Shown here one piece after another: positions 2 through 26,225 of a stretch of 64,000 nucleotides of DNA. Numbering within the stretch: position 1 is the first letter of the stretch; every line of letters starts with the position of its first letter. The DNA is taken from NCBI RefSeq assembly GCF_044324785.1, contig NZ_CP172127.1; one strand, given 5' to 3'. A program made the position numbers and the translations under genes. The notes below the pieces were generated by a model that was not told the origin of the DNA, did no database searches, and saw only the letters and a program-made list of their open reading frames with translations. This DNA comes from Escherichia coli (lineage in GTDB: Bacteria > Pseudomonadota > Gammaproteobacteria > Enterobacterales > Enterobacteriaceae).

Positions 2-589
2 ATAAAAGCAGGCAAGCTATTTACCGATATGTGCGAAGGCTTACCGGAAAAAAGACTTCGTGGGAAAACGTTAATGTATGAGTTTAATCACTCGCATCCA
101 TCAGAAGTTGAAAAAAGAGAAAGCCTGATTAAAGAAATGTTTGCCACGGTAGGGGAAAACGCCTGGGTAGAACCTCCCGTCTATTTCTCTTACGGTTCCA
201 ACATCCATATAGGCCGCAATTTTTATGCAAATTTTAATTTAACCATTGTCGATGACTACACGGTAACAATCGGTGATAACGTACTGATTGCACCCAACGT
301 TACTCTTTCCGTTACGGGACACCCGGTACACCATGAATTAAGAAAAAACGGTGAGATGTACTCTTTTCCGATAACGATTGGCAATAACGTCTGGATCGGA
401 AGTCATGTGGTTATTAATCCAGGCGTCACCATCGGGGATAATTCTGTTATTGGCGCGGGTAGTGTCGTCACAAAAGACATTCCACCAAACGTCGTGGCTG
501 CTGGCGTTCCTTGTCGGGTTATTCGCGAAATAAACGACCGGGATAAGCACTATTATTACAAAGATTATAAAGTTGAGCCTTCAGTTTAA
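2..589 (+). CDS. lacA: galactoside O-acetyltransferase, 5'-truncated by window edge
   Basis: ORF 29..589 matches LacA C-terminal sequence (hexapeptide-repeat acetyltransferase, ends ...YKDYKVEPSV); frame continues open to position 2. Confidence 0.95.
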   Translation: MKAGKLFTDMCEGLPEKRLRGKTLMYEFNHSHPSEVEKRESLIKEMFATVGENAWVEPPVYFSYGSNIHIGRNFYANFNLTIVDDYTVTIGDNVLIAPNVTLSVTGHPVHHELRKNGEMYSFPITIGNNVWIGSHVVINPGVTIGDNSVIGAGSVVTKDIPPNVVAAGVPCRVIREINDRDKHYYYKDYKVEPSV

Positions 590-607
590 ATAAGCACTGA
601 AATAAAT

Positions 608-635
608 GTCGGATGCGCCACTGGGCACATCCGAC
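608..635. terminator. convergent hairpin between lacA and cynX (stem gtcggatg / catccgac)
   Basis: 8-bp inverted repeat with 12-nt loop read directly in sequence, lying between the stops of two convergent genes. Confidence 0.45.
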
Positions 636-676
636 AATAATTCACTCTTCCAATATCTGGCGAAACAAGCGTCGCA

Positions 677-1831
677 TCATGCCTCTTTGACCCACAGCGG
701 CGGAAAACGTGCTGGTGCAAAACGCAGGGTTATGATCATCAGCCCAACGACGCACAGCGCATGAAATGCCCAGTCCATCAGGTAATTGCCGCTGATACTA
801 CGCAGCACGCCAGAAAACCACGGGGCAAGCCCGGCGATGATAAAACCGATCCCCTGCATAAACGCCACCAGCTTGCCAGCAATAGTCGGTTGCACAGAGT
901 GATCGAGAGCCAGCAGCAAACAGAGCGGAAATGCGCCACCCAGACCTAACCCACACACCATCGCCCACAATACCGGCAATTGCAGCGGCAGCCAGATAAG
1001 GCCGCAGAAACCCACCAGTTGTAACGCCAGTGCCAGCATTAAAAGTTTCCGCCGATCCTGATGGCGAGCCATAGCAGGCATCAGCAATGCCCCTGCTGCT
1101 TGCCCAAGCGTCATCAATGCCAGCAAGGAACCGCTGTACTGCGCGCTGGCACCAATCTCAATATAGAAAGCGGGTAACCAGGCAATCAGGCTGGCGTAAC
1201 CGCCGTTAATCAGACCGAAGTAAACACCCAGCGTCCACGCGCGGGGAGTAAATACCACGCGAACCGGAGTGGTTGTTGTCTTGTGAGAAGAGGCGACCTC
1301 GCGGGCGTTTTGCCTCCACCAGGCAAAGAGCGCAACAACGGCAGGCAGCGCCCACCAGGCGAGTGTTTGATACCAGGTTTCGCTATGTTGAACTAACCAG
1401 GGCGTAATGGCGGCACCAAGTCCACCGCCGCCCATCAGAGCCGCGGACCACAGCCCCATCACCAGTGGCGTACGGTGCTGAAACCGCCGCTTAATTACCG
1501 AAGGCATCACCGCCTGAATGATGCCAATCCCCACTCCACCAAGCAGTGCGCTGCTAAGCAGCAGCGCACTTTGGGGGTAAAGCTCACGCATCAATGCACC
1601 GACGGCAATCAGTAACAAACTGATGGCGACGCTGCGACGTTCGCTGACATGCTGATGAAGCCAGCTTCCGGCCAGCGCCAGCCCGCCCATGGTAACCACC
1701 GGCAGAGCGGTCAACAGGGCAGCCACGCTAAAGCTCATTCCGCTTGCCTGGCGCAATTGCGGTAGCAGTGGCCCGACGGAGGTGAGCAGTGGTCGCATAT
1801 TAAGACCAATCAGCACCAGAACCAGCAGCAT
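677..1831 (-). CDS. cynX: cyanate MFS transporter
   Basis: ORF 677..1858 is a multi-pass hydrophobic protein matching CynX; start trimmed to ATG at 1831 giving 384 aa (the length I recall); ATG at 1858 is an alternative. Confidence 0.88.
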   Translation of the reverse strand: MLLVLVLIGLNMRPLLTSVGPLLPQLRQASGMSFSVAALLTALPVVTMGGLALAGSWLHQHVSERRSVAISLLLIAVGALMRELYPQSALLLSSALLGGVGIGIIQAVMPSVIKRRFQHRTPLVMGLWSAALMGGGGLGAAITPWLVQHSETWYQTLAWWALPAVVALFAWWRQNAREVASSHKTTTTPVRVVFTPRAWTLGVYFGLINGGYASLIAWLPAFYIEIGASAQYSGSLLALMTLGQAAGALLMPAMARHQDRRKLLMLALALQLVGFCGLIWLPLQLPVLWAMVCGLGLGGAFPLCLLLALDHSVQPTIAGKLVAFMQGIGFIIAGLAPWFSGVLRSISGNYLMDWAFHALCVVGLMIITLRFAPARFPPLWVKEA

Positions 1832-1863
1832 CGTGAACGTCTTTTGATGGTTACGCATGGCTG

Positions 1864-2352
<489 letters not shown>

Positions 2353-2363
2353 TTAAAATAAGG

Positions 2364-3023
2364 TTACGCTGCGGTCGGTTGGCGTAGCGGTATGGCACAA
2401 ACGCGAGGATTAGCGGCCAGTGGCACAAACTGGCGGGTTGCGCCGTCAAAAGCTGCGATGCTGCCGCTTTCAATGTCGTAGACCCAGCCGTGCAGGGCGA
2501 TCCGCCCCTCTTCGAGCGCCAGGCGCACCGATGGATGAGTTTGCAAATTAGCCAACTGAGCAATGACGTTTTCACGTACCATCGCCGCAGCTTTTGACGG
2601 TAAATCGGGAAGCGGGCGCGCCTCATTAACGACGCGGGCTGAATCGGCATAACGCAGCCAGTGGGAGACGGCAGGCATATGGTCCATGCACTGACAGCTG
2701 GCAATGGCGGTCATCGCGCCACAGTTGGAATGACCGCAAATCACAATGTCAGATACCCGAAGCGCAGCGACGGCATACTCCACCGAAGCAGAAACGCCAC
2801 CGGGTTCCGGCCCGTAGGAAGGGACGATATTGCCCGCGTTGCGAATAACGAACAGATCGCCAGGCTCACGTTGCGTCACCAGCTCAGGGACCAGACGGCT
2901 GTCGGAGCAGGAGATAAAAAGGGTGCGCGGGCTTTGCTGTGTCGCCAGCTGTTTAAACAAGGCTTCCCGCTTCGGAAATGCCTCGCGCTGGAATTTAAGG
3001 AATCCATCAATAATCTCTTTCAC
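2364..3023 (-). CDS. cynT: beta-class carbonic anhydrase
   Basis: 219-aa ORF matching CynT (CSDSR and HxxCG zinc-ligand motifs present). Confidence 0.95.
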
Positions 3024-3073
3024 CGTTAACCTCTGTCTGTCTCTGGAATGAGAGGCAGACTACTCGCCGATTG

Positions 3074-3099
3074 TCATAAGGTAAAAGTCTCATTTATGA
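3074..3099. promoter_or_regulatory. dyad TCATAA-N14-TTATGA in cynR/cynT divergent intergenic region; candidate LysR-type (CynR) site
   Basis: Inverted hexamers read in sequence between divergent cynR and cynTSX; LysR regulators typically bind T-N11-A-like dyads upstream of the divergent target. Confidence 0.25.
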
Positions 3100-3132
3100 T
3101 GAGTTCTATTGGATTTACTTATAGGTTGGCGA

Positions 3133-4032
3133 ATGCTCTCTCGACATATCAATTATTTTCTTGCCGTGGCTGAACATGGCAGCTTCACCCGTGCAGCCAG
3201 TGCGTTGCACGTCTCCCAGCCAGCACTTTCCCAGCAGATTCGCCAGTTAGAGGAGAGTTTAGGCGTGCCGCTGTTTGACCGTAGCGGGCGAACGATTCGT
3301 CTCACTGATGCAGGAGAAGTCTGGCGACAGTACGCCAGCCGGGCTTTACAGGAACTGGGGGCGGGTAAACGGGCGATTCATGATGTTGCCGATCTGACGC
3401 GAGGATCGCTGCGTATCGCCGTCACTCCCACCTTTACAAGCTACTTTATCGGCCCTTTAATGGCGGATTTCTATGCGCGCTACCCCGGCATCACGCTCCA
3501 GCTACAGGAAATGTCGCAGGAGAAAATCGAAGATCTGCTTTGCCGCGACGAGCTGGACGTTGGGATTGCCTTCGCGCCTGTGCATTCGCCGGAGCTGGAG
3601 GCAATTCCTTTACTGACAGAAAGTTTAGCTTTAGTCGTGGCGCAATATCATCCGCTGGCTGCCTGTGAACAGGTGGCGTTGAGTCGCTTGCATGATGAAA
3701 AACTGGTCCTGCTCAGCGCGGAATTTGCCACCAGAGAGCAAATTGACCACTACTGTGAGAAAGCGGGGCTACATCCACAGGTGGTCATTGAGGCGAACTC
3801 AATTAGCGCGGTTCTGGAGCTGATTCGCCGCACTTCCCTTTCCACATTGTTGCCAGCAGCGATTGCCACACAACATGACGGGCTTAAAGCTATATCCCTT
3901 GCCCCACCGTTACTGGAGAGAACGGCGGTTTTGTTGCGGCGGAAAAATAGCTGGCAGACAGCCGCCGCGAAGGCATTTTTACACATGGCGTTGGAGGAAT
4001 GTGCGGATGTTGGCGAGAATGAATCACGGTAG
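3133..4032 (+). CDS. cynR: LysR-family transcriptional regulator of cyn operon
   Basis: ORF 3109..4032 trimmed to ATG 3133 ([22 protein letters not shown]..., 299 aa); HTH at N-terminus; divergent from cynTSX. Confidence 0.93.
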
Positions 4033-4053
4033 CCACTGACACAGGTCAGTGGC
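4032..4053. terminator. bidirectional hairpin gccactgac-acag-gtcagtggc between cynR and codA
   Basis: Perfect 9-bp stem with 4-nt loop overlapping the cynR stop codon; convergent gene ends on both sides. Confidence 0.5.
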
Positions 4054-4071
4054 TCTTCAACGCAGAGGAAA

Positions 4072-5355
4072 TTACCGTTTGTAATCGATGGCTTCTGGCT
4101 GCTCCAGATATACGGTGGTTTGTGCTGGTTGGGTGCTGGCAATCACCTTACCGCCACGTACCGAATAGCGCACCGGAACCTGACGGCGCAGCGCATCAAA
4201 CCCATTTTCAGCCGGCAGGATAATCAGGTTGGCGCTGTTTCCGGCGGCAATGCCGTAATCCTGCAAATTCAACGTCCTGGCGCTATGGTGGGTGATTAAA
4301 TTCAGGCCGTCGTTAATCTGCCCGTAGCCCATCAACTGACAAACATGCAGCCCCATATGCAGCACTTGCAGCATATTCGCCGTTCCCAGTGGATACCACG
4401 GATCGAAGACATCATCGTGACCAAAGCAGACGTTAATGCCGGACTCCAGCATCTCTTTAACGCGCGTGATGCCGCGACGTTTTGGATAGGTATCGAAACG
4501 TCCTTGCAGATGAATATTGACCAGCGGGTTGGCGACAAAGTTAATACCGGACATTTTCAGCAAACGGAACAAGCGTGAGGTATACGCCCCGTTATAGGAG
4601 TGCATTGCCGTAGTGTGGCTAGCGGTGACTCGCGCGCCCATGCCTTCACGGTGCGCCAGGGCAGCAACGGTTTCGACAAAGCGCGACTGCTCGTCATCGA
4701 TCTCATCACAGTGAACGTCGATGAGACGGTCGTATTTTTGCGCCAGGGCGAAGGTTTTATGCAGCGACTCCACGCCGTATTCGCGGGTAAATTCAAAATG
4801 CGGAATCGCCCCCACTACGTCTGCCCCTAAGCGTAACGCCTCTTCCAGCAACGCTTCACCGTTGGGATACGACAAAATCCCTTCCTGCGGGAAGGCGACG
4901 ATTTGCAGATCAATCCACGGCGCGACTTCCTGCTTCACTTCCAGCATTGCTTTCAGCGCGGTCAGCGTTGCATCCGAAACATCGACATGGGTACGTACAT
5001 GCTGAATGCCGTTGGCAATCTGCCATTTCAGCGTTTGCCATGCGCGTTGTTTCACATCGTCATGGGTTAATAACGCTTTGCGCTCGGCCCAGCGTTCAAT
5101 GCCTTCGAACAGCGTGCCGGACTGATTCCAGTTCGGTTGTCCGGCGGTTTGCGTGGTGTCCAGGTGAATATGCGGCTCCACAAACGGCGGTAAAACTAAA
5201 CCTTGTTCGGCATCCAGGCTGTTTTCTGTTACGGGCATCACACCAGATTGCGTATCAATGGCGCTGATTTTTCCGTCGTGAAGATGAATCTGCCACAGCC
5301 CCTCTTTGCCGGGTAACCGGGCGTTAATAATTGTTTGTAAAGCGTTATTCGACAC
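4072..5355 (-). CDS. codA: cytosine deaminase
   Basis: ORF 4072..5370 matches CodA; start set to GTG at 5355 ([16 protein letters not shown]...), the known non-ATG start as I recall it. Confidence 0.94.
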
Positions 5356-6604
5356 TGTTAGCCTCCACATGCGTCATTGCTGCTGTCGTTTTACGATTCA
5401 AAATCGGGTTAAGGATCAGATAGCTCAGCGCGCCACCTAATACCGCGTTGACCGGAACAATTCCCGGTAACCAGTGGCCTGCGGCAATCCCCAGCGCGAC
5501 CGCCAGAATTGCCACCCAATTGACACTCATCATACGCGTGGTCGCAAAGTGCTCATAGCGGCGACGGTTCATCAGATAGTCAGCGATGATCACGCCCCCT
5601 ACCGGAGGAATAGCTGCCGAAAGGAAGGTCAGCCAGCCGACAAAATTGTTATACAGCCATAGTGCGCAGACCGTACCGATAATACCGTTGATTACCGAAA
5701 GGGTTTTGCTCGACATCCCGGTAATGTTGGCGAAACCTAAGCCCGACGCATAGAGCGCGTTATCGTTGGTGGTCCAGATATTCAGCCCCAGCACCACAAT
5801 CGCAGGCAGCAGCAGACCCTGAGCAATCATCACATCAGAGATATCCGCCATCCCCAGTGCCGCCGCGCCCGCTGCACCGAAAATAAACATCAACGAGTTG
5901 CCGAGGAAAAAGGCCACCATCGCCACCAGCACCGCCAGTTTGGCATTGCGACCAAACCGGACAAAGTCAGCGGTGAGCGTGCCCGCGCTGATAAATGACC
6001 CCACAACCAGCGCCAGTGCGACATTGAAATCTAACGGTTGTGCGGGAACGACCGCTTTTAATGCGTCCAGGCCGCCCATGCCATTAACAGCCAGCCACAC
6101 GGAATAACCGCCAAGGCAGGCGATAGCCGGAACCGCAATCACCGAAAGAACCGTCAGCGCCGAAATGCCAAAGAAGACGGTGACGGTCATCAGTAAACCG
6201 GAGACGGCAATCAGCAAATTAATATCCAGCCCGGTTGCCTTGCCCACCGGAATAGCAAACATCGCCACGCCAACGCCAAACCAGCCGACCTGAGTGCCGC
6301 CCAGCAGCAGTGAAGGCAGCCATGAGCCTTTAACACCAAACGAGAAGCGAGCAAGAAGATGAGTGGTCAGGCCGGTTTTTGCGCCAATGTAACCAAGAAA
6401 TGAAGTGTAAATACCGAGGAGAAGATTACCGATGAGGACTGCGAGGAAGAAATCATGATAGCTAAGACCGGTTCCGAGAGTGCCGCCGGTCCACATACTG
6501 GCGGAAAAGAAGGTTAATCCCAGCATGACGAACGTCAATGCCAATACCCCTTTCCGCGCCGACTGCGGGACTGGCCCCTGGCTAAAGTTGTTATCTTGCG
6601 ACAC
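5345..6604 (-). CDS. codB: cytosine permease
   Basis: 419-aa polytopic membrane protein matching CodB; 11-nt overlap with codA start indicates an operon. Confidence 0.95.
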
Positions 6605-6779
6605 GAAATTCCCCCTTTTTGCTGTTTGAAACCCAAAAAATCCGCCGCATTCTATTCATCTGAAGATAAAAAGCAATCGTTTTCGTGGGGAAATATATTT
6701 TTTATATGAATGAGTGCAAAAAGGTGGGGGAAAAATTATCGGTGTAAAAACAGTGGGTAGCCATAATAAGACGCGGTAA

Positions 6780-6834
6780 GCGTCGCATCAGGCATCGGCG
6801 CATGGTGTCGGATGCGCCAGGCGACGCATCCGAC
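6780..6834. repeat. REP-like palindromic element / terminator immediately downstream of prpE
   Basis: Nested inverted repeats (ggcgcat/atgcgcc and gtcggatgcg/cgcatccgac) read in sequence; GC-rich REP-like composition. Confidence 0.5.
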
Positions 6835-6840
6835 AATAAC

Positions 6841-8727
6841 CTACTCTTCCATCGCCTGGCGGATCTGATCCAACGACGCAGGATCATCAATGGTCGTCAG
6901 ATCCCCAGGATCGCGTCCTTCACAAATCGCCTGGATCGTGCGGCGCAGCATTTTTCCGGATCGCGTTTTCGGCAATTGCGAGACAAACCAGACGTGCGCC
7001 GGGCGACCAAAGTTGCCAATCTGGCTGTCCACCAGCGCCATAATCGCCTTCTCTTGCGAATGCGCCACATCACGATCTTCCAGACTGTCGCTCTCTTTCG
7101 GAATGACAAACGCCACCGCCACCTGCCCTTTCAGCGCATCTTTCACCCCAACCACCGCCACTTCGGCAACGCCCGGATGACTGGAGATACTCTCTTCAAT
7201 CTCGCGCGTCCCCAGCCGATGCCCGGCAACGTTAATCACATCGTCAGTGCGCCCGAGAATAAAGTGATAACCGTCAGCATCGCGGATACCCCAGTCAAAA
7301 GTGGCGTACACCGGACGGGAAAACAGCGACCAGTACGTCTTCACAAAGCGGTCGTCGTCGCCCCAAATGGTCTGAATACACCCCGGCGGCAGCGGCCCTT
7401 CCACCACCAGCATCCCTTTCTCGTTGACCCCGCACGGTTCGCCGGTAACTTCATTGAGCAACTGCACGTTGTAGCCATACATCGGCACGCCGGGGCTTCC
7501 CAGACGCGTCGGCCTGTCGTCCAGACCGCGAGCAATCGCCATAATCGGCCAGCCGGATTCGGTCTGCCAGTAGTTGTCGATGACCGGCACATCCAGCGTA
7601 TTGCTCACCCAACTGGCGGTCGGCTCGTCCAGCGGTTCTCCAGCCAGATAGAGCACTTCCAGCGACGAGAGATCGTGTTTGCGAATTTCAGCGGTAGGGA
7701 ATTTTTTCAGCACGCGAATGGCGGTCGGCGCTGAGAACATCCGGCTAACCTGATATTTCTCGACGATTTTCCACCACACACCGCAGTCCGGCCAGGTCGG
7801 CAATCCTTCGTAAACGATAGTCGCCATCCCCGCCAGCAGCGGCGCGTAGACGATATACGAATGCCCCACCACCCAGCCGATATCCGAAGCACAAAAGAAC
7901 ACACCGCCCGCTTTGCCGCCAAAAATGGTTTCCATCGAGGTCGCCAGCGCCACCGCATATCCGCCAACGTCACGCTGCACGCCTTTAGGTTTGCCGGTCG
8001 TGCCGGAGGTGTAGAGAATGCAGGAGGTTTCGTTGGATTCCAGCCACGCCACCGGTACCCGCGCGCCGATGTGTTGATGGCGCAACGACGCGAAATCGAC
8101 ATCCCGCCCGCTGACGCGTGCCATTTTCGCCAGCCCGCGATCCACCAGCAAAACATGGCGTGGCTGGTGCTGCGCCTGACTTATCGCATCGTCGAGCAAT
8201 TTTTTATAGGGAATGATTTTGCCACCGCGCGCTCCGGCATCAGCCGAGACAATCAGCACCGGTTTAGCATCATCAATTCGCGCCGCCACGCTGTGCGAGG
8301 CAAATCCACCAAACACCACCGAGTGAATAGCGCCAATGCGCGCGCAGGCCAGCAGAGTAATATGCGCTTCGGCAATCATCGGCATATACACCAGCACCCG
8401 ATCGCCACGCTGCACGCCCAATGAACGCAACATTGAGGCCACCGCGTTCACTTCGTCATGCAGCTGACGAAAGGTAAAGGTGCGCTCTTCTTCTGTTTCC
8501 GAAGAGACGGCAATCAGCGCCAGCGCCTCTGGCTGTTTCTCCAGCCAGCGGTCGATAGCGTTGTGACACAAGTTGGTTCGGCCTTCACAAAACCAACGGG
8601 CAAACGGCGGGTTGCTGTGGTCGAGCGTTTGCGTAAAGGGCGTCTGCCAGTCAATACGCCGGGCCTGCTCGGCCCAGAACTGCTCCGGTTCGTTAATCGA
8701 ACGCTGATAAAATTCGCTAAAAGACAT
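6841..8727 (-). CDS. prpE: propionate--CoA ligase
   Basis: 628-aa acyl-CoA synthetase matching PrpE (AMP-binding motif YTSGTTGKPKG). Confidence 0.95.
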   Translation of the reverse strand: MSFSEFYQRSINEPEQFWAEQARRIDWQTPFTQTLDHSNPPFARWFCEGRTNLCHNAIDRWLEKQPEALALIAVSSETEEERTFTFRQLHDEVNAVASMLRSLGVQRGDRVLVYMPMIAEAHITLLACARIGAIHSVVFGGFASHSVAARIDDAKPVLIVSADAGARGGKIIPYKKLLDDAISQAQHQPRHVLLVDRGLAKMARVSGRDVDFASLRHQHIGARVPVAWLESNETSCILYTSGTTGKPKGVQRDVGGYAVALATSMETIFGGKAGGVFFCASDIGWVVGHSYIVYAPLLAGMATIVYEGLPTWPDCGVWWKIVEKYQVSRMFSAPTAIRVLKKFPTAEIRKHDLSSLEVLYLAGEPLDEPTASWVSNTLDVPVIDNYWQTESGWPIMAIARGLDDRPTRLGSPGVPMYGYNVQLLNEVTGEPCGVNEKGMLVVEGPLPPGCIQTIWGDDDRFVKTYWSLFSRPVYATFDWGIRDADGYHFILGRTDDVINVAGHRLGTREIEESISSHPGVAEVAVVGVKDALKGQVAVAFVIPKESDSLEDRDVAHSQEKAIMALVDSQIGNFGRPAHVWFVSQLPKTRSGKMLRRTIQAICEGRDPGDLTTIDDPASLDQIRQAMEE

Positions 8728-10251: not shown

Positions 10252-11421
10252 TTACTGGCGCTTATCCAGCGCGACAAACTGGCGGTCTTCCGGTCCAACA
10301 TAATTGGCGGAAGGACGGATAATTTTGTTGTCCTGACGTTGTTCGATAATGTGCGCAGCCCAGCCAGTGACACGGGCGATAACAAACAGTGGTGTGAACA
10401 TCTCGGTGGGAACACCCATCATGTTGTAGGAAACAGCGGAGAACCAGTCGAGATTGGGGAACATCTTTTTGCTCTCCCACATCACCGTTTCCAGGCGATC
10501 GGCGATGTTGTACATCTTCAGCGAGCCGCCTTCCTGCGAGAGCTGCTTCGCCACGCGTTTGATCACCTGATGACGCGGGTCGGCGATGGTATAAACCGGA
10601 TGACCAAAACCAATGACCACTTCTTTGTTTTCCACCCGCTTGCGGATATCGGCTTCGGCTTCGTCCGGCGTTTCGTAGCGTTGCTGGATCTCCAGCGACA
10701 CTTCATTCGCTCCGCCGTGTTTCGGCCCGCGCAGTGCGCCAATTGCGCCAATAATGGCTGAGTACATATCAGAGCCGGTGCCCGCAATCACCCGGCTGGT
10801 AAAGGTGGAGGCGTTAAACTCGTGTTCGGCGTACAGCACCAGCGAAATATGCATCGCCTTTTCCCAGCTTTGCGACGGCTTTTCGCCATGCAGCAGATGC
10901 AGGAAGTGACCGCCGATGGAGTCGTCATCGGTTTCCGGCTGAATGCGTTCGCCGTTGTGGCTGTAGTGATACCAGTAGAGAAGAATCGAGCTAAGTGACG
11001 CCAGCAGTTTGTCGGCAATATCCCGCGCACCAGAAACGGTGTGCCCCTCTTTTTCTGGCAGCGTGCAGCCGAGCGCGGAAACGCCTGTGCGCATGATATC
11101 CATCGGGTGCGACGCCGCGGGTAAGGCTTCCAGCACGGTACGCACGTTAGCTGGTAAACCGCGCAGGGCTTTCAGTTTTGTTTTGTAAGCGGCGAGTTCG
11201 TCACGGGTCGGCAGTTTGCCGTGGATCAGCAGATGCGCCACTTCTTCAAATTCGCAATGTTCCGCCAGATCAAGAATATCGTAACCACGGTAATGCAAGT
11301 CATTGCCACTTTTACCCACGGTGCAGAGCGCCGTATTGCCCGCCGGAACGCCAGAAAGTGCTACCGATTTTTTCGGTTTAATGACATGGGTACTGTTTTG
11401 CAGGATCGTTGTGTCGCTCAT
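10252..11421 (-). CDS. prpC: 2-methylcitrate synthase
   Basis: 389-aa citrate-synthase-family ORF matching PrpC. Confidence 0.95.
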
Positions 11422-11465
11422 ATTGTCCTCGTCATTTGTAGGGTCGAGATATTTTTCGTTGTGTT

Positions 11466-12356
11466 TTATTTCACCTGGCTACGGGCAAACAGGTCGTCGA
11501 GCTTCTCTTCGTACTGGTAGTAGTTGATGCTTTCGTACAGCTCGTTGCGGGTCTGCATGGTGTCGATGACGCTTTTCTGCGTCCCTTCCTGACGCAGGAC
11601 GTTGTAGACATGCTCAGCGGCGCGGTTCATGGCGCGGAACGCTGAAAGTGGGTACAGCGCCATTGCGACATGGGCGCTGCGTAATTCGTCGGTGGTAAAC
11701 AGCGGTGTTGCGCCAAATTCGGTGATGTTGGCGAGGATCGGCACCTGCACCGCATCGGCAAACTGGCGGTACATGGCGAGTTCGGTAATCGCCTCCGGGA
11801 ACAACATCTCGGCACCCGCTTCAACATAGGCCTGCGCACGCTCAATCGCCGCATCCAGCCCCTCTACCGCCAGCGCATCGGTGCGCGCCATGATCACAAA
11901 ATCAGGATCGGTTTTCGCATCCACCGCCGCGCGGATCCGATCCACCATTTCTTCTTTCGAGACGATCGCTTTATTCGGGCGATGACCGCAACGTTTCGCA
12001 CCAACCTGATCTTCAATATGCAATCCTGCCGCACCGGCTTTAATCATCGATTTCACGGTGCGCGCCACGTTAAAAGCAGAAGAACCAAAACCGATATCCG
12101 CATCCACCAGCAGCGGCAGCGAACAAACGTCGGTGATACGGCGAATATCTGTCAGCACGTCATCAAGAGTAGAAATACCGAGATCGGGCAGCCCCAGCGA
12201 CCCTGCCGCCACGCCACCGCCGGAGAGATAAATTGCCTGATATCCGGCACGCTGCGCCAACAGCGCATGGTTGGCGTTGATGGTGCCGACAATCTGTAAT
12301 GGATTTTCTTTAGTCAGTGCAGCGCGAAACGCTTTACCTGGAGAGTGTAGAGACAT
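11466..12356 (-). CDS. prpB: 2-methylisocitrate lyase
   Basis: 296-aa PEP-mutase/isocitrate-lyase family ORF matching PrpB. Confidence 0.95.
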
Positions 12357-25980: not shown

Positions 25981-26030
25981 GTTGTTATGTCCGCTACAGA
26001 GGGTGATGGGGTTATGACCAACGCCAGACT

Positions 26031-26202
26031 GCCTGATGCGCTACGCTTATCAGGCCTAGAATTCTCGTGCCATTCGTAGGCCGGATAAGGCGTTCACGCC
26101 GCATCCGGCAATGGTGACAAATGCCTGATGCGCTACGCTTATCAGGCCTACAGATTCTCGCGCCACTCGTAGGCCGGATAAGGCGTTCACGCCGCATCCG
26201 GC
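26031..26202. repeat. REP cluster (BIME): two tandem copies of an inverted REP pair
   Basis: gcctgatgcgctacgcttatcaggcctac and gtaggccggataaggcgttcacgccgcatccggca each occur twice (26031..26110 and 26123..26202). Confidence 0.88.
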
Positions 26203-26225
26203 AAAGACAACGCGCACTTTGCAGG

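Follow-up and report, generated by a model that had tools for sequence, protein, structure and literature searches.

A probable REP-derived hairpin downstream of prpE in Escherichia coli, its paralogue between lacA and cynX, and rearrangement at the surrounding repeats

Introduction

REP and BIME elements at the ends of operons are a textbook feature of Escherichia coli. The E. coli REP transposase requires both a GTAG tetranucleotide and a bulge in the stem, and 'corrected' perfect stems lose activity (PMC3333891, PMC8266576). Thus, TnpA_REP activity was severely affected by the 'corrected' G12C13 mutant (PMC8266576), while the B268TT mutant lost activity and a similar result was mentioned, as data not shown, for B268GC (PMC3333891). 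Length polymorphism of BIMEs between strains is likewise well known (PMC2817692, PMC3333891). At the RNA level, REPs have been described as partial Rho-dependent terminators and as mRNA stabilisers or exonuclease barriers, according to context; most have no U-tract and are at most partial terminators of the Rho-dependent kind, and genome-wide their effects on half-life and termination are context-dependent and often absent (bioRxiv 10.64898/2026.03.23.713779). [quoted passage not shown] (2015) as cited in PMC12306157.

Here we analyse a 64,000-nt stretch of DNA (hereafter the window) which carries a palindrome immediately downstream of prpE. A sequence-only reading had described this as a REP-like, nested palindrome serving as the prpE terminator, with similar elements after lacA and prpR, and had seen in such shared palindromes potential points of rearrangement. 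We refer to the elements after prpE and lacA as P2 and P1, respectively.

Results

Gene order and REP content of the window

An 801-nt stretch around the palindrome finds a match in 5,257 of 5,426 complete genomes, with a best identity of 99.6%, and the window is from an Escherichia coli strain other than K-12. Open reading frames, annotated relatives and translated gene ends together give the order lacA, cynXSTR, codAB, prpEDCB, prpR. The 3' part of lacA (29-589, plus strand) converges on cynX (677-1858, minus strand); cynS and cynT, also on the minus strand, lie between cynX and cynR (3109-4032, plus strand). There follow, on the minus strand, codA (4072-5370), codB (5345-6604) and the propionate--CoA ligase gene prpE (6841-8727), whose 3' end abuts P2, then prpD, prpC and prpB on the same strand and finally prpR (12583-14181, plus strand).

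A census in which REP consensus sequences were used to seed and align recovered six units only in the 64 kb: a degenerate long Z-type REP (6757-6794, plus strand), a degenerate Y-type REP (14184-14217, minus strand) and four canonical units at 26030-26203. These last, which match 29-35 of 30-35 consensus positions, make up a canonical BIME cluster of two tandem units with short Z-type and Y-type REPs alternating, the sole other REP cluster in the window. The RefSeq annotation of the corresponding K-12 region contains no repeat features, including at 5000-6500, where a REP/RIP annotation was expected, and so does not serve to classify the elements.

The hairpin after prpE

The 10-bp palindrome had been positioned exactly, its arms lying at 6807-6816 and 6825-6834. 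The pattern GTCGGATGCG(N8)CGCATCCGAC has a single occurrence in the window, at 6807-6834, with none expected from 100 dinucleotide-preserving shuffles. The complete element P2 (6806-6835, minus strand) is a 30-nt hairpin that starts 5 nt past the prpE stop codon (6841-6843, UAG). In prpE-sense RNA its stem comprises 13 bp (UGUCGGAUGCGUC / GGCGCAUCCGACA), with one U·G pair, and is closed by the tetraloop GCCU. It folds much better than shuffled sequence does, with z values of -3.9 as RNA and -4.3 to -4.9 as DNA.

The second, 7-bp stem exists, GCGTCGC at 6780-6786 being complementary to GCGACGC at 6821-6827, but the description of the two stems as nested does not survive. The 3' half of the shorter stem overlaps the 3' arm of the longer (6825-6834) by 3 nt, so that both cannot form together, and the 7-bp stem is absent from the predicted folds. 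The complementarity arises because 6780-6786 is part of the inverted Z-type REP at 6757-6794, which shares the REP core GATGCGACGC.

This Z-type unit, the inverted partner of P2, retains GTAG at 6757-6760 and has a damaged outer stem, with GCCATAAT in place of GCCTGAT. It is joined head-to-head to P2 by the 11-nt linker TCGGCGCATGG (6795-6805), a sequence that recurs between the units of longer arrays in other strains. The locus thus has the composition of a BIME, with palindromic units in opposite orientation, Z on the plus strand and P2 on the minus, across a short linker. It also has the strain-variable unit number of a BIME, since over eight strains the prpE-codB spacer contains from 1 to about 9 units: one in the window, strain 7/2 and E. 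coli B, two in K-12, O111:H8 and CD306, 5-6 in EC31 and 8-9 in AHM8C212RI. Inside these arrays, canonical Y units (TGTCGGATGCGGCGCGAGCGCCTTATCCGACCTAC) and Z units alternate. The prpE-adjacent unit is P2 in the compared arrays, with the exception of CD306-type strains, where a canonical Y, its GTAG overlapping the prpE stop codon, takes the terminal place.

Comparison of P2 with the local Y variant (GTCGGAT) gives agreement at 28 of 35 positions, the alignment gap falling at the bulge. Against the 35-nt y consensus (GTAGGCCGGATAAGGCGTTCACGCCGCATCCGGCA) there is agreement at 24 of 35 positions with gaps, and the score of 10 is equalled by 60 of 2000 shuffles; P1 matches the same consensus at 23-26 of 35 positions. 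In both P1 and P2 the AA/GC mid-stem bulge is missing: there are 10 perfect pairs (13 with G·U) and GC stands where Y has AA. Neither has GTAG directly 5' of the stem foot. The sole GTAG at P2 is that of the prpE stop context, 6 nt away (GAGTAGGTTATTGTCGG), and P1 has GTGA at its foot. High dispersed copy number was not found for P-type sequence in the 5,426 genomes, which have matches at a median of one place and a maximum of three, confined to the cynX-lacA spacer and the prpE end. The extragenic 3'-end location typical of REPs is shared by P2 after prpE, by P1 between the convergent lacA and cynX and by the third element after prpR.

As a label, 'REP-like' is therefore apt for the BIME context and the 28/35 match to the local Y variant, but not for the bulge and stem-foot GTAG that P1 and P2 lack. 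Given the poor scores against the general Y consensus, it is chiefly their context and the match to the local Y variant that lead us to infer descent of P1 and P2 from a REP; P2 would be the prpE-proximal unit of a BIME and a bulge-less derivative of a Y-type REP. Since both of the features that it lacks are needed by the transposase, P2 is probably a hairpin of REP origin which the transposase no longer accepts as substrate.

A 56-nt direct repeat after lacA

The gtcggatg/catccgac motif noticed at 608-635 is present, and the element containing it is related to P2 more closely than had been claimed, being a 56-nt copy in collinear arrangement, the last codons of prpE included. The hairpin itself, P1 (607-636, minus strand), lies in the lacA-cynX spacer, 17 nt from the lacA stop codon and 40 nt from that of cynX; read in the cynX sense, its stem is of 13 bp, one of them G·U, and its loop is CAGU. 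The direct repeat comprises 607-662 and 6806-6861, 79% identical and 6,199 nt apart, and is the longest and top-ranking in the first 16 kb. It contains the last 21 nt of prpE and brackets exactly codBA-cynRTSX. The right-hand part of copy 2 (6836-6861, minus strand) consists of an AATAA spacer (6836-6840) and the stop and last six codons of prpE (6841-6861, ...RQAMEE*). Its counterpart in copy 1 (637-662, minus strand) is a non-coding relic of the prpE 3' end, AATAA plus CGCCAGATATTGGAAGAGTGA, to be compared with CGCCAGGCGATGGAAGAGTAG in prpE.

The similarity of P1 and P2 extends 26 nt past the palindrome, with 19 of 26 anchored positions matching (P = 1.3e-6). Local alignment to the right of the repeat detected no homology beyond the 56 nt, yielding only an off-register 11-mer that is not significant (29 of 1000 shuffles). 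Compared with the 5,426 genomes, the P1 region has matches at two places only, its own locus and the end of prpE. By these alignments P1 and P2 are specific paralogues, a two-copy repeat and not a dispersed family. The relic variants of other strains keep different ancestral positions (O111, CCATCATCTGGCG; strain 7/2, CCATTATCTGGCG; prpE, CCATCGCCTGGCG), which supports real homology of P1 and P2, and a stop codon occupies the homologous position in three variants (TGA, TGA and TAA). A coding remnant within the relic was considered and set aside, as the sequence is in a different frame from cynX and too short for a coding test.

Variation in this spacer is considerable. P1 is present in about 1,146 of the 5,426 genomes (~21%); the window type of lacA-cynX spacer, with P1, accounts for 614 and the K-12 type, with a Z+Y BIME in place of P1, for 3,049. 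A Z-like half-REP (663-679; GATGCGACGCTT; GGCATGATGCGACGCTT) encloses the cynX stop codon and is conserved between window-type and K-12-type spacers, the rest up to lacA being different. The relic at 637-662 differs from the O111-type version (locus L004, 7037-7062) at 8 of 27 positions, a divergence far above that usual in this species, and of the three versions (window, O111 and prpE) no two are clearly closer to each other than to the third. An old polymorphism could be the cause, as could partial conversion from P2, repeated over time, or import from another lineage. Copies of P1 and P2 identical to those of E. coli 7/2 are also found on a 12-kb contig from a metagenome-assembled genome labelled 'Citrobacter sp.' (DXKH01000124.1, locus L093), which is probably a mis-binned E. 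coli contig.

The element after prpR

The degenerate REP reported at 14184-14215 is real, and alignment to the Y consensus gives it a span of 14184-14217 (minus strand), starting 2 nt after the prpR stop codon. It keeps the bulge, seen as a 2x2 internal loop in the predicted fold, has TATG for GTAG and is identical in sequence in K-12. Pairwise alignment and REP classification, the comparisons that the sequence-only reading had suggested, separate the three elements. P1 and P2 align with a score of 25, reached by none of 2000 shuffles, whereas P2 and the prpR element score only 10, equalled by 31 of 2000. The prpR element falls in the canonical Y class, with 29 of 35 positions matching and a score of 24 (0 of 2000 shuffles). 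As judged by alignment, it is an independent, ordinary degenerate Y-type REP and no member of the P1/P2 pair. Of the 'similar elements' after lacA and prpR, then, the former is a specific paralogue of P2 and the latter is related to it at the family level only.

Features at the transcript level

The designation of P2 as the prpE terminator is not borne out. In the prpE sense its tail is CCATGCGCCG, with CCATGCGCCGAT following the hairpin, which is to say that the U-tract of a Rho-independent terminator is lacking, and a terminator scan does not pick P2. A weak terminator-like site is found just downstream of it, at 6789-6770 on the minus strand, within the Z-type REP. The tail of P1 in the cynX sense is TTTATTTCAG, with TTTATTT; together with its 13 pairs this makes P1 the top terminator-like site in 16 kb.

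Seven distinct P1/P2 variants were compared for pairing on the two strands. On the minus strand 100% of the stem cells of the alignment pair, and the four pairs that vary are all G·U; read from the plus strand, these become C·A and 89% of cells pair. Confinement of stem variation to G·U is suggestive of selection on an RNA hairpin in the prpE- and cynX-sense transcripts, the asymmetry resting on four variable positions (about 1 in 16 by chance) with no compensatory double changes.

As the first element of the prpBCDE 3' UTR, a 13-bp hairpin 5 nt past the stop codon, P2 would be likely, by analogy with published REPs, to act as a barrier to 3'->5' exonucleases. The same analogy makes it a likely pause site or partial attenuator, probably Rho-dependent, that would shield codBA from prp read-through. 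P1, presumably copied from P2 together with the last 21 nt of prpE and since diverged, probably marks the end of cynTSX transcription, to judge from its U-rich tail in the cynX sense. As regards distance to a stop codon, P2 (5 nt) and the prpR REP (2 nt) both lie within the 16-nt limit mentioned above, and P1 lies outside it with respect to both of its neighbours.

Rearrangements at the repeats

The suggestion that these palindromes are points of rearrangement is upheld by natural variants whose junctions lie at the repeats. In 532 of the 5,426 genomes (~10%) lacA is absent, giving the order lacY-P1-cynX, and the junction falls in AATGTCGGATGCG, common to the lacY-lacA Y-REP and P1. E. coli O111:H8 08-4455 is of this kind (locus L004, 6998-7077), a hybrid of the lacY-lacA REP and P1 being found 8 nt after the lacY stop codon. 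In a further arrangement, observed in 986 of the 5,426 genomes (~18%), cynRTSX is absent and lacA is separated from codA by a BIME, the left half of which matches the one after lacA and the right half the one after cynR. In E. coli CD306, for example (locus L128, 4602-4723), cynRTSX is gone entirely, and a single BIME separates the convergent lacA and codA. The locus shows, in this way, that 11-13-bp REP arms and whole BIMEs yield common presence/absence polymorphisms of real genes. At the DNA level the repeats would act as short-homology recombination substrates, leading to copy-number changes and deletions in the E. coli population.

Other spacers of the region vary too. Between cynR and codA the window has 39 nt (4033-4071) with a small hairpin, GCCACTGAC ACAG GTCAGTGGC; in K-12 (locus L001, 12455-12792) and E. 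coli B the spacer is of about 336 nt and contains a tandem duplicate of the cynR 3' end together with a Z+Y BIME. The annotation of E. coli B shows this stretch as an incomplete hypothetical protein. The prpB-prpC spacer measures 44 nt in the window (11422-11465) and 440 nt in K-12 (locus L001, 4573-5013), where it holds four tandem BIME units whose Y units are of the GTCGGATG...ATCCGAC variant. E. coli 7/2, the haplotype of which is otherwise as in the window, has an IS200C transposase gene between lacZ and lacY (locus L003, 4413-4871), and the annotation treats its codA, which has an internal stop, as a pseudogene (10478-11761 of the same locus).

The locus in related species

A pattern scan of contigs for CGGATG-N10-14-CATCCGACAAT, having 17 fixed bases, returns many random matches and may miss other Escherichia; E. 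albertii and one E. coli-like contig from a metagenome-assembled genome are among the matches listed. E. albertii has a P2-type hairpin at the same distance from the prpE stop codon, followed by TTTAT. From its position we conclude that the hairpin predates E. coli, and from the TTTAT that the ancestral hairpin may have been a better prpE terminator. Its lac-side flank is A/T-rich (ATAAAT), a feature found in E. coli at P1 and not at P2. REP-type sequences occur after prpE in more distant relatives also: Salmonella salamae has the 5' half of a Y-type REP (GTAAGCCGGATAAGCCGCG) 2 nt after the prpE stop codon and Citrobacter koseri has a REP pair after the gene. In E. albertii (LacZ 88% identical) and C. 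koseri (82%), lacZ converges directly on prpE without cod or cyn genes between them.

The closest cynX outside Escherichia is that of Yokenella, 82% identical and in an unrelated context; no related hairpin was found at that locus. An 'E. coli' CynX of 84% identity was rejected as an outgroup, the assembly being error-ridden with fragmented genes.

Discussion

The account that we consider probable is that P2 is a 3'-UTR hairpin derived from a BIME unit, that P1 is its copy, that the prpR element is an independent Y-REP and that the repeats are recombinogenic; the functions we infer. The idea that the three elements are unrelated GC-rich palindromes resembling one another by chance could draw on the score of 10 that P2 attains against both the prpR element and canonical Y, equalled by dozens of shuffles in either case. 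It is, even so, extremely improbable, P1 and P2 being similar well past the palindrome, the prpR element aligning with canonical Y at a score unmatched among shuffles and P2 sitting in a BIME array whose other units are canonical; for the P1/P2 pair and for the Y-class membership of the prpR element it is refuted. Very unlikely, though somewhat less so, is that P1 and P2 are active REPs, mobile through TnpA_REP and current substrates of this REP transposase (RAYT). Both lie in or beside BIMEs and share their foot and 3' arm (GCGCATCCGACA) with the Y units of the arrays, but the GC that replaces the bulged AA in their perfect stem is the very change made in the G12C13 mutant, GTAG is displaced from the foot in P2 and absent from P1, and there are only two copies per genome. 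That P2 is a classical Rho-independent terminator of the prpBCDE operon has more to commend it, namely a strong GC-rich hairpin directly after the last gene, the orthologous E. albertii hairpin with TTTAT in the prpE sense, a terminator-like paralogue in P1 and the weak site at 6789-6770. We nevertheless regard it as unlikely for want of a U-tract after P2, which the consensus scan leaves uncalled, and in view of the general finding that most REPs lack a U-tract and terminate at most partially and with Rho (bioRxiv 10.64898/2026.03.23.713779).

One further explanation concerns how P1 arose, and can stand beside the main account of hairpin function. P1 and P2 might be scars of a duplicative insertion in which the hairpin at the end of prpE was the point of entry, between prpE and lac, of the 6.2-kb codBA-cynRTSX block and was duplicated together with the last 27 nt before it; Campbell-type integration of a circle and BIME-associated capture are examples of how this might have happened. 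We advance this tentatively, as possible but doubtful. It would explain why the 56-nt repeat brackets exactly these six genes and why copy 1 holds a non-coding relic of the last prpE codons. It agrees with the convergence of lacZ on prpE in E. albertii and C. koseri, with the ATAAAT flank that the E. albertii hairpin shares with P1 and with the unrelated, hairpin-free context of cynX in Yokenella. REP-adjacent capture of gene 3' ends has, moreover, been reported (PMC2817692), and the tandem cynR 3' end and BIME of K-12 lie nearby. Against this, the E. albertii and C. koseri arrangements are equally explicable by deletions, both species also lack lacY and lacA, on which the model is silent, and the shared left flank amounts to only six A/T-rich bases. 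P1 is, besides, found in only about a fifth of genomes, so that it may instead have arisen later, from P2, by ectopic gene conversion. The hallmarks of an att-type scar are likewise incomplete: direct repeats with a gene 3' end are present, but no integrase or transposase is encoded among the six genes codBA-cynRTSX and the reciprocal P1 x P2 excision junction occurs in none of the 5,426 genomes. To go on to treat the repeat as the footprint of the arrival of codBA-cynRTSX, the REP-derived hairpin having been the site of recombination or capture and P1 the original prpE-lac terminator reused for cynTSX, is similarly speculative.

Returning to P2 as a REP-derived 3'-UTR hairpin with P1 as its copy, the kind of element involved is already known, namely the ordinary REP/BIME type of E. 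coli repeat, here with two REP hallmarks lost. No prior discussion of the P1/P2 repeat was found in the literature and supplements searched for these gene names. The additions specific to this locus are modest, consisting of the bulge-less derivative, the 56-nt copy with the prpE end and the frequent repeat-bounded deletions. They do provide a natural series, from a canonical bulged Y with GTAG on the prpE stop codon (CD306-type strains), through a bulge-less form with displaced GTAG (the window, K-12 and E. albertii), to P1 with its U-tract. Such a series could separate the RNA-level roles of REP hairpins (stability, attenuation and stop-codon proximity) from transposase recognition.

Comparison with known systems

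Rho-independent terminators resemble P1 and P2 in having a stable GC-rich stem-loop after the last gene and, in the case of P1, a U-rich tail in the cynX sense, but P2 in the window strain has no U-tract in the prpE sense. Stop-proximal REPs that stall terminating ribosomes (Liang, Rudd & Deutscher 2015, as cited in PMC12306157) would be comparable to P2 and the prpR REP by analogy of distance; P2 differs in not being a canonical REP and P1 is too far from the stop codons. With the gene 3' ends that BIMEs have captured between their REPs (Nunvar et al. 2010, PMC2817692) the locus shares the duplication of a gene-end piece together with a REP-type hairpin, the comparable cases here being P1 with the last 21 nt of prpE and the tandem cynR 3' end with a BIME in K-12. 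P1 and P2 differ from those captures in lying 6.2 kb apart around six unrelated genes and not as adjacent units of an array.

The closest resemblance is to E. coli Y-type REPs and BIMEs (Gilson/Bachellier nomenclature; Ton-Hoang et al. 2012, PMC3333891; Corneloup et al. 2021, PMC8266576). P1 and P2 are like Y-type REPs in their extragenic position at gene 3' ends and in forming a GC-rich hairpin of about 30 nt with foot GTCGGAT...ATCCGAC, and the prpE-codB spacer is like BIME arrays in the alternation with Z units across short linkers and in the strain-variable tandem number. They differ in the perfect stem without AA/GC bulge, in the GTAG not at the foot and in being present in two copies per genome where REPs number hundreds, and P1 differs from a BIME in being solitary, with no Z unit beside it. 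Of the other units, those at 14184-14217 (after prpR) and 6757-6794 (Z) belong plainly to the family, in degenerate form. The prpE locus can also be set beside REP325/naRNA4 (Rfam RF02564), for which partial Rho-dependent termination and mRNA stabilisation have been demonstrated (bioRxiv 10.64898/2026.03.23.713779). The number of units is one as against six in REP325, and the Z+P2 pair, at 35.2 bits (E = 0.004), stays under the gathering score of 59.5. Both consist, however, of a Z+Y hairpin pair in a 3' UTR, the window sequence at 6759-6835 aligning to the full 77-nt model, and by analogy the pair in the window would likewise serve in exonuclease blocking and attenuation.
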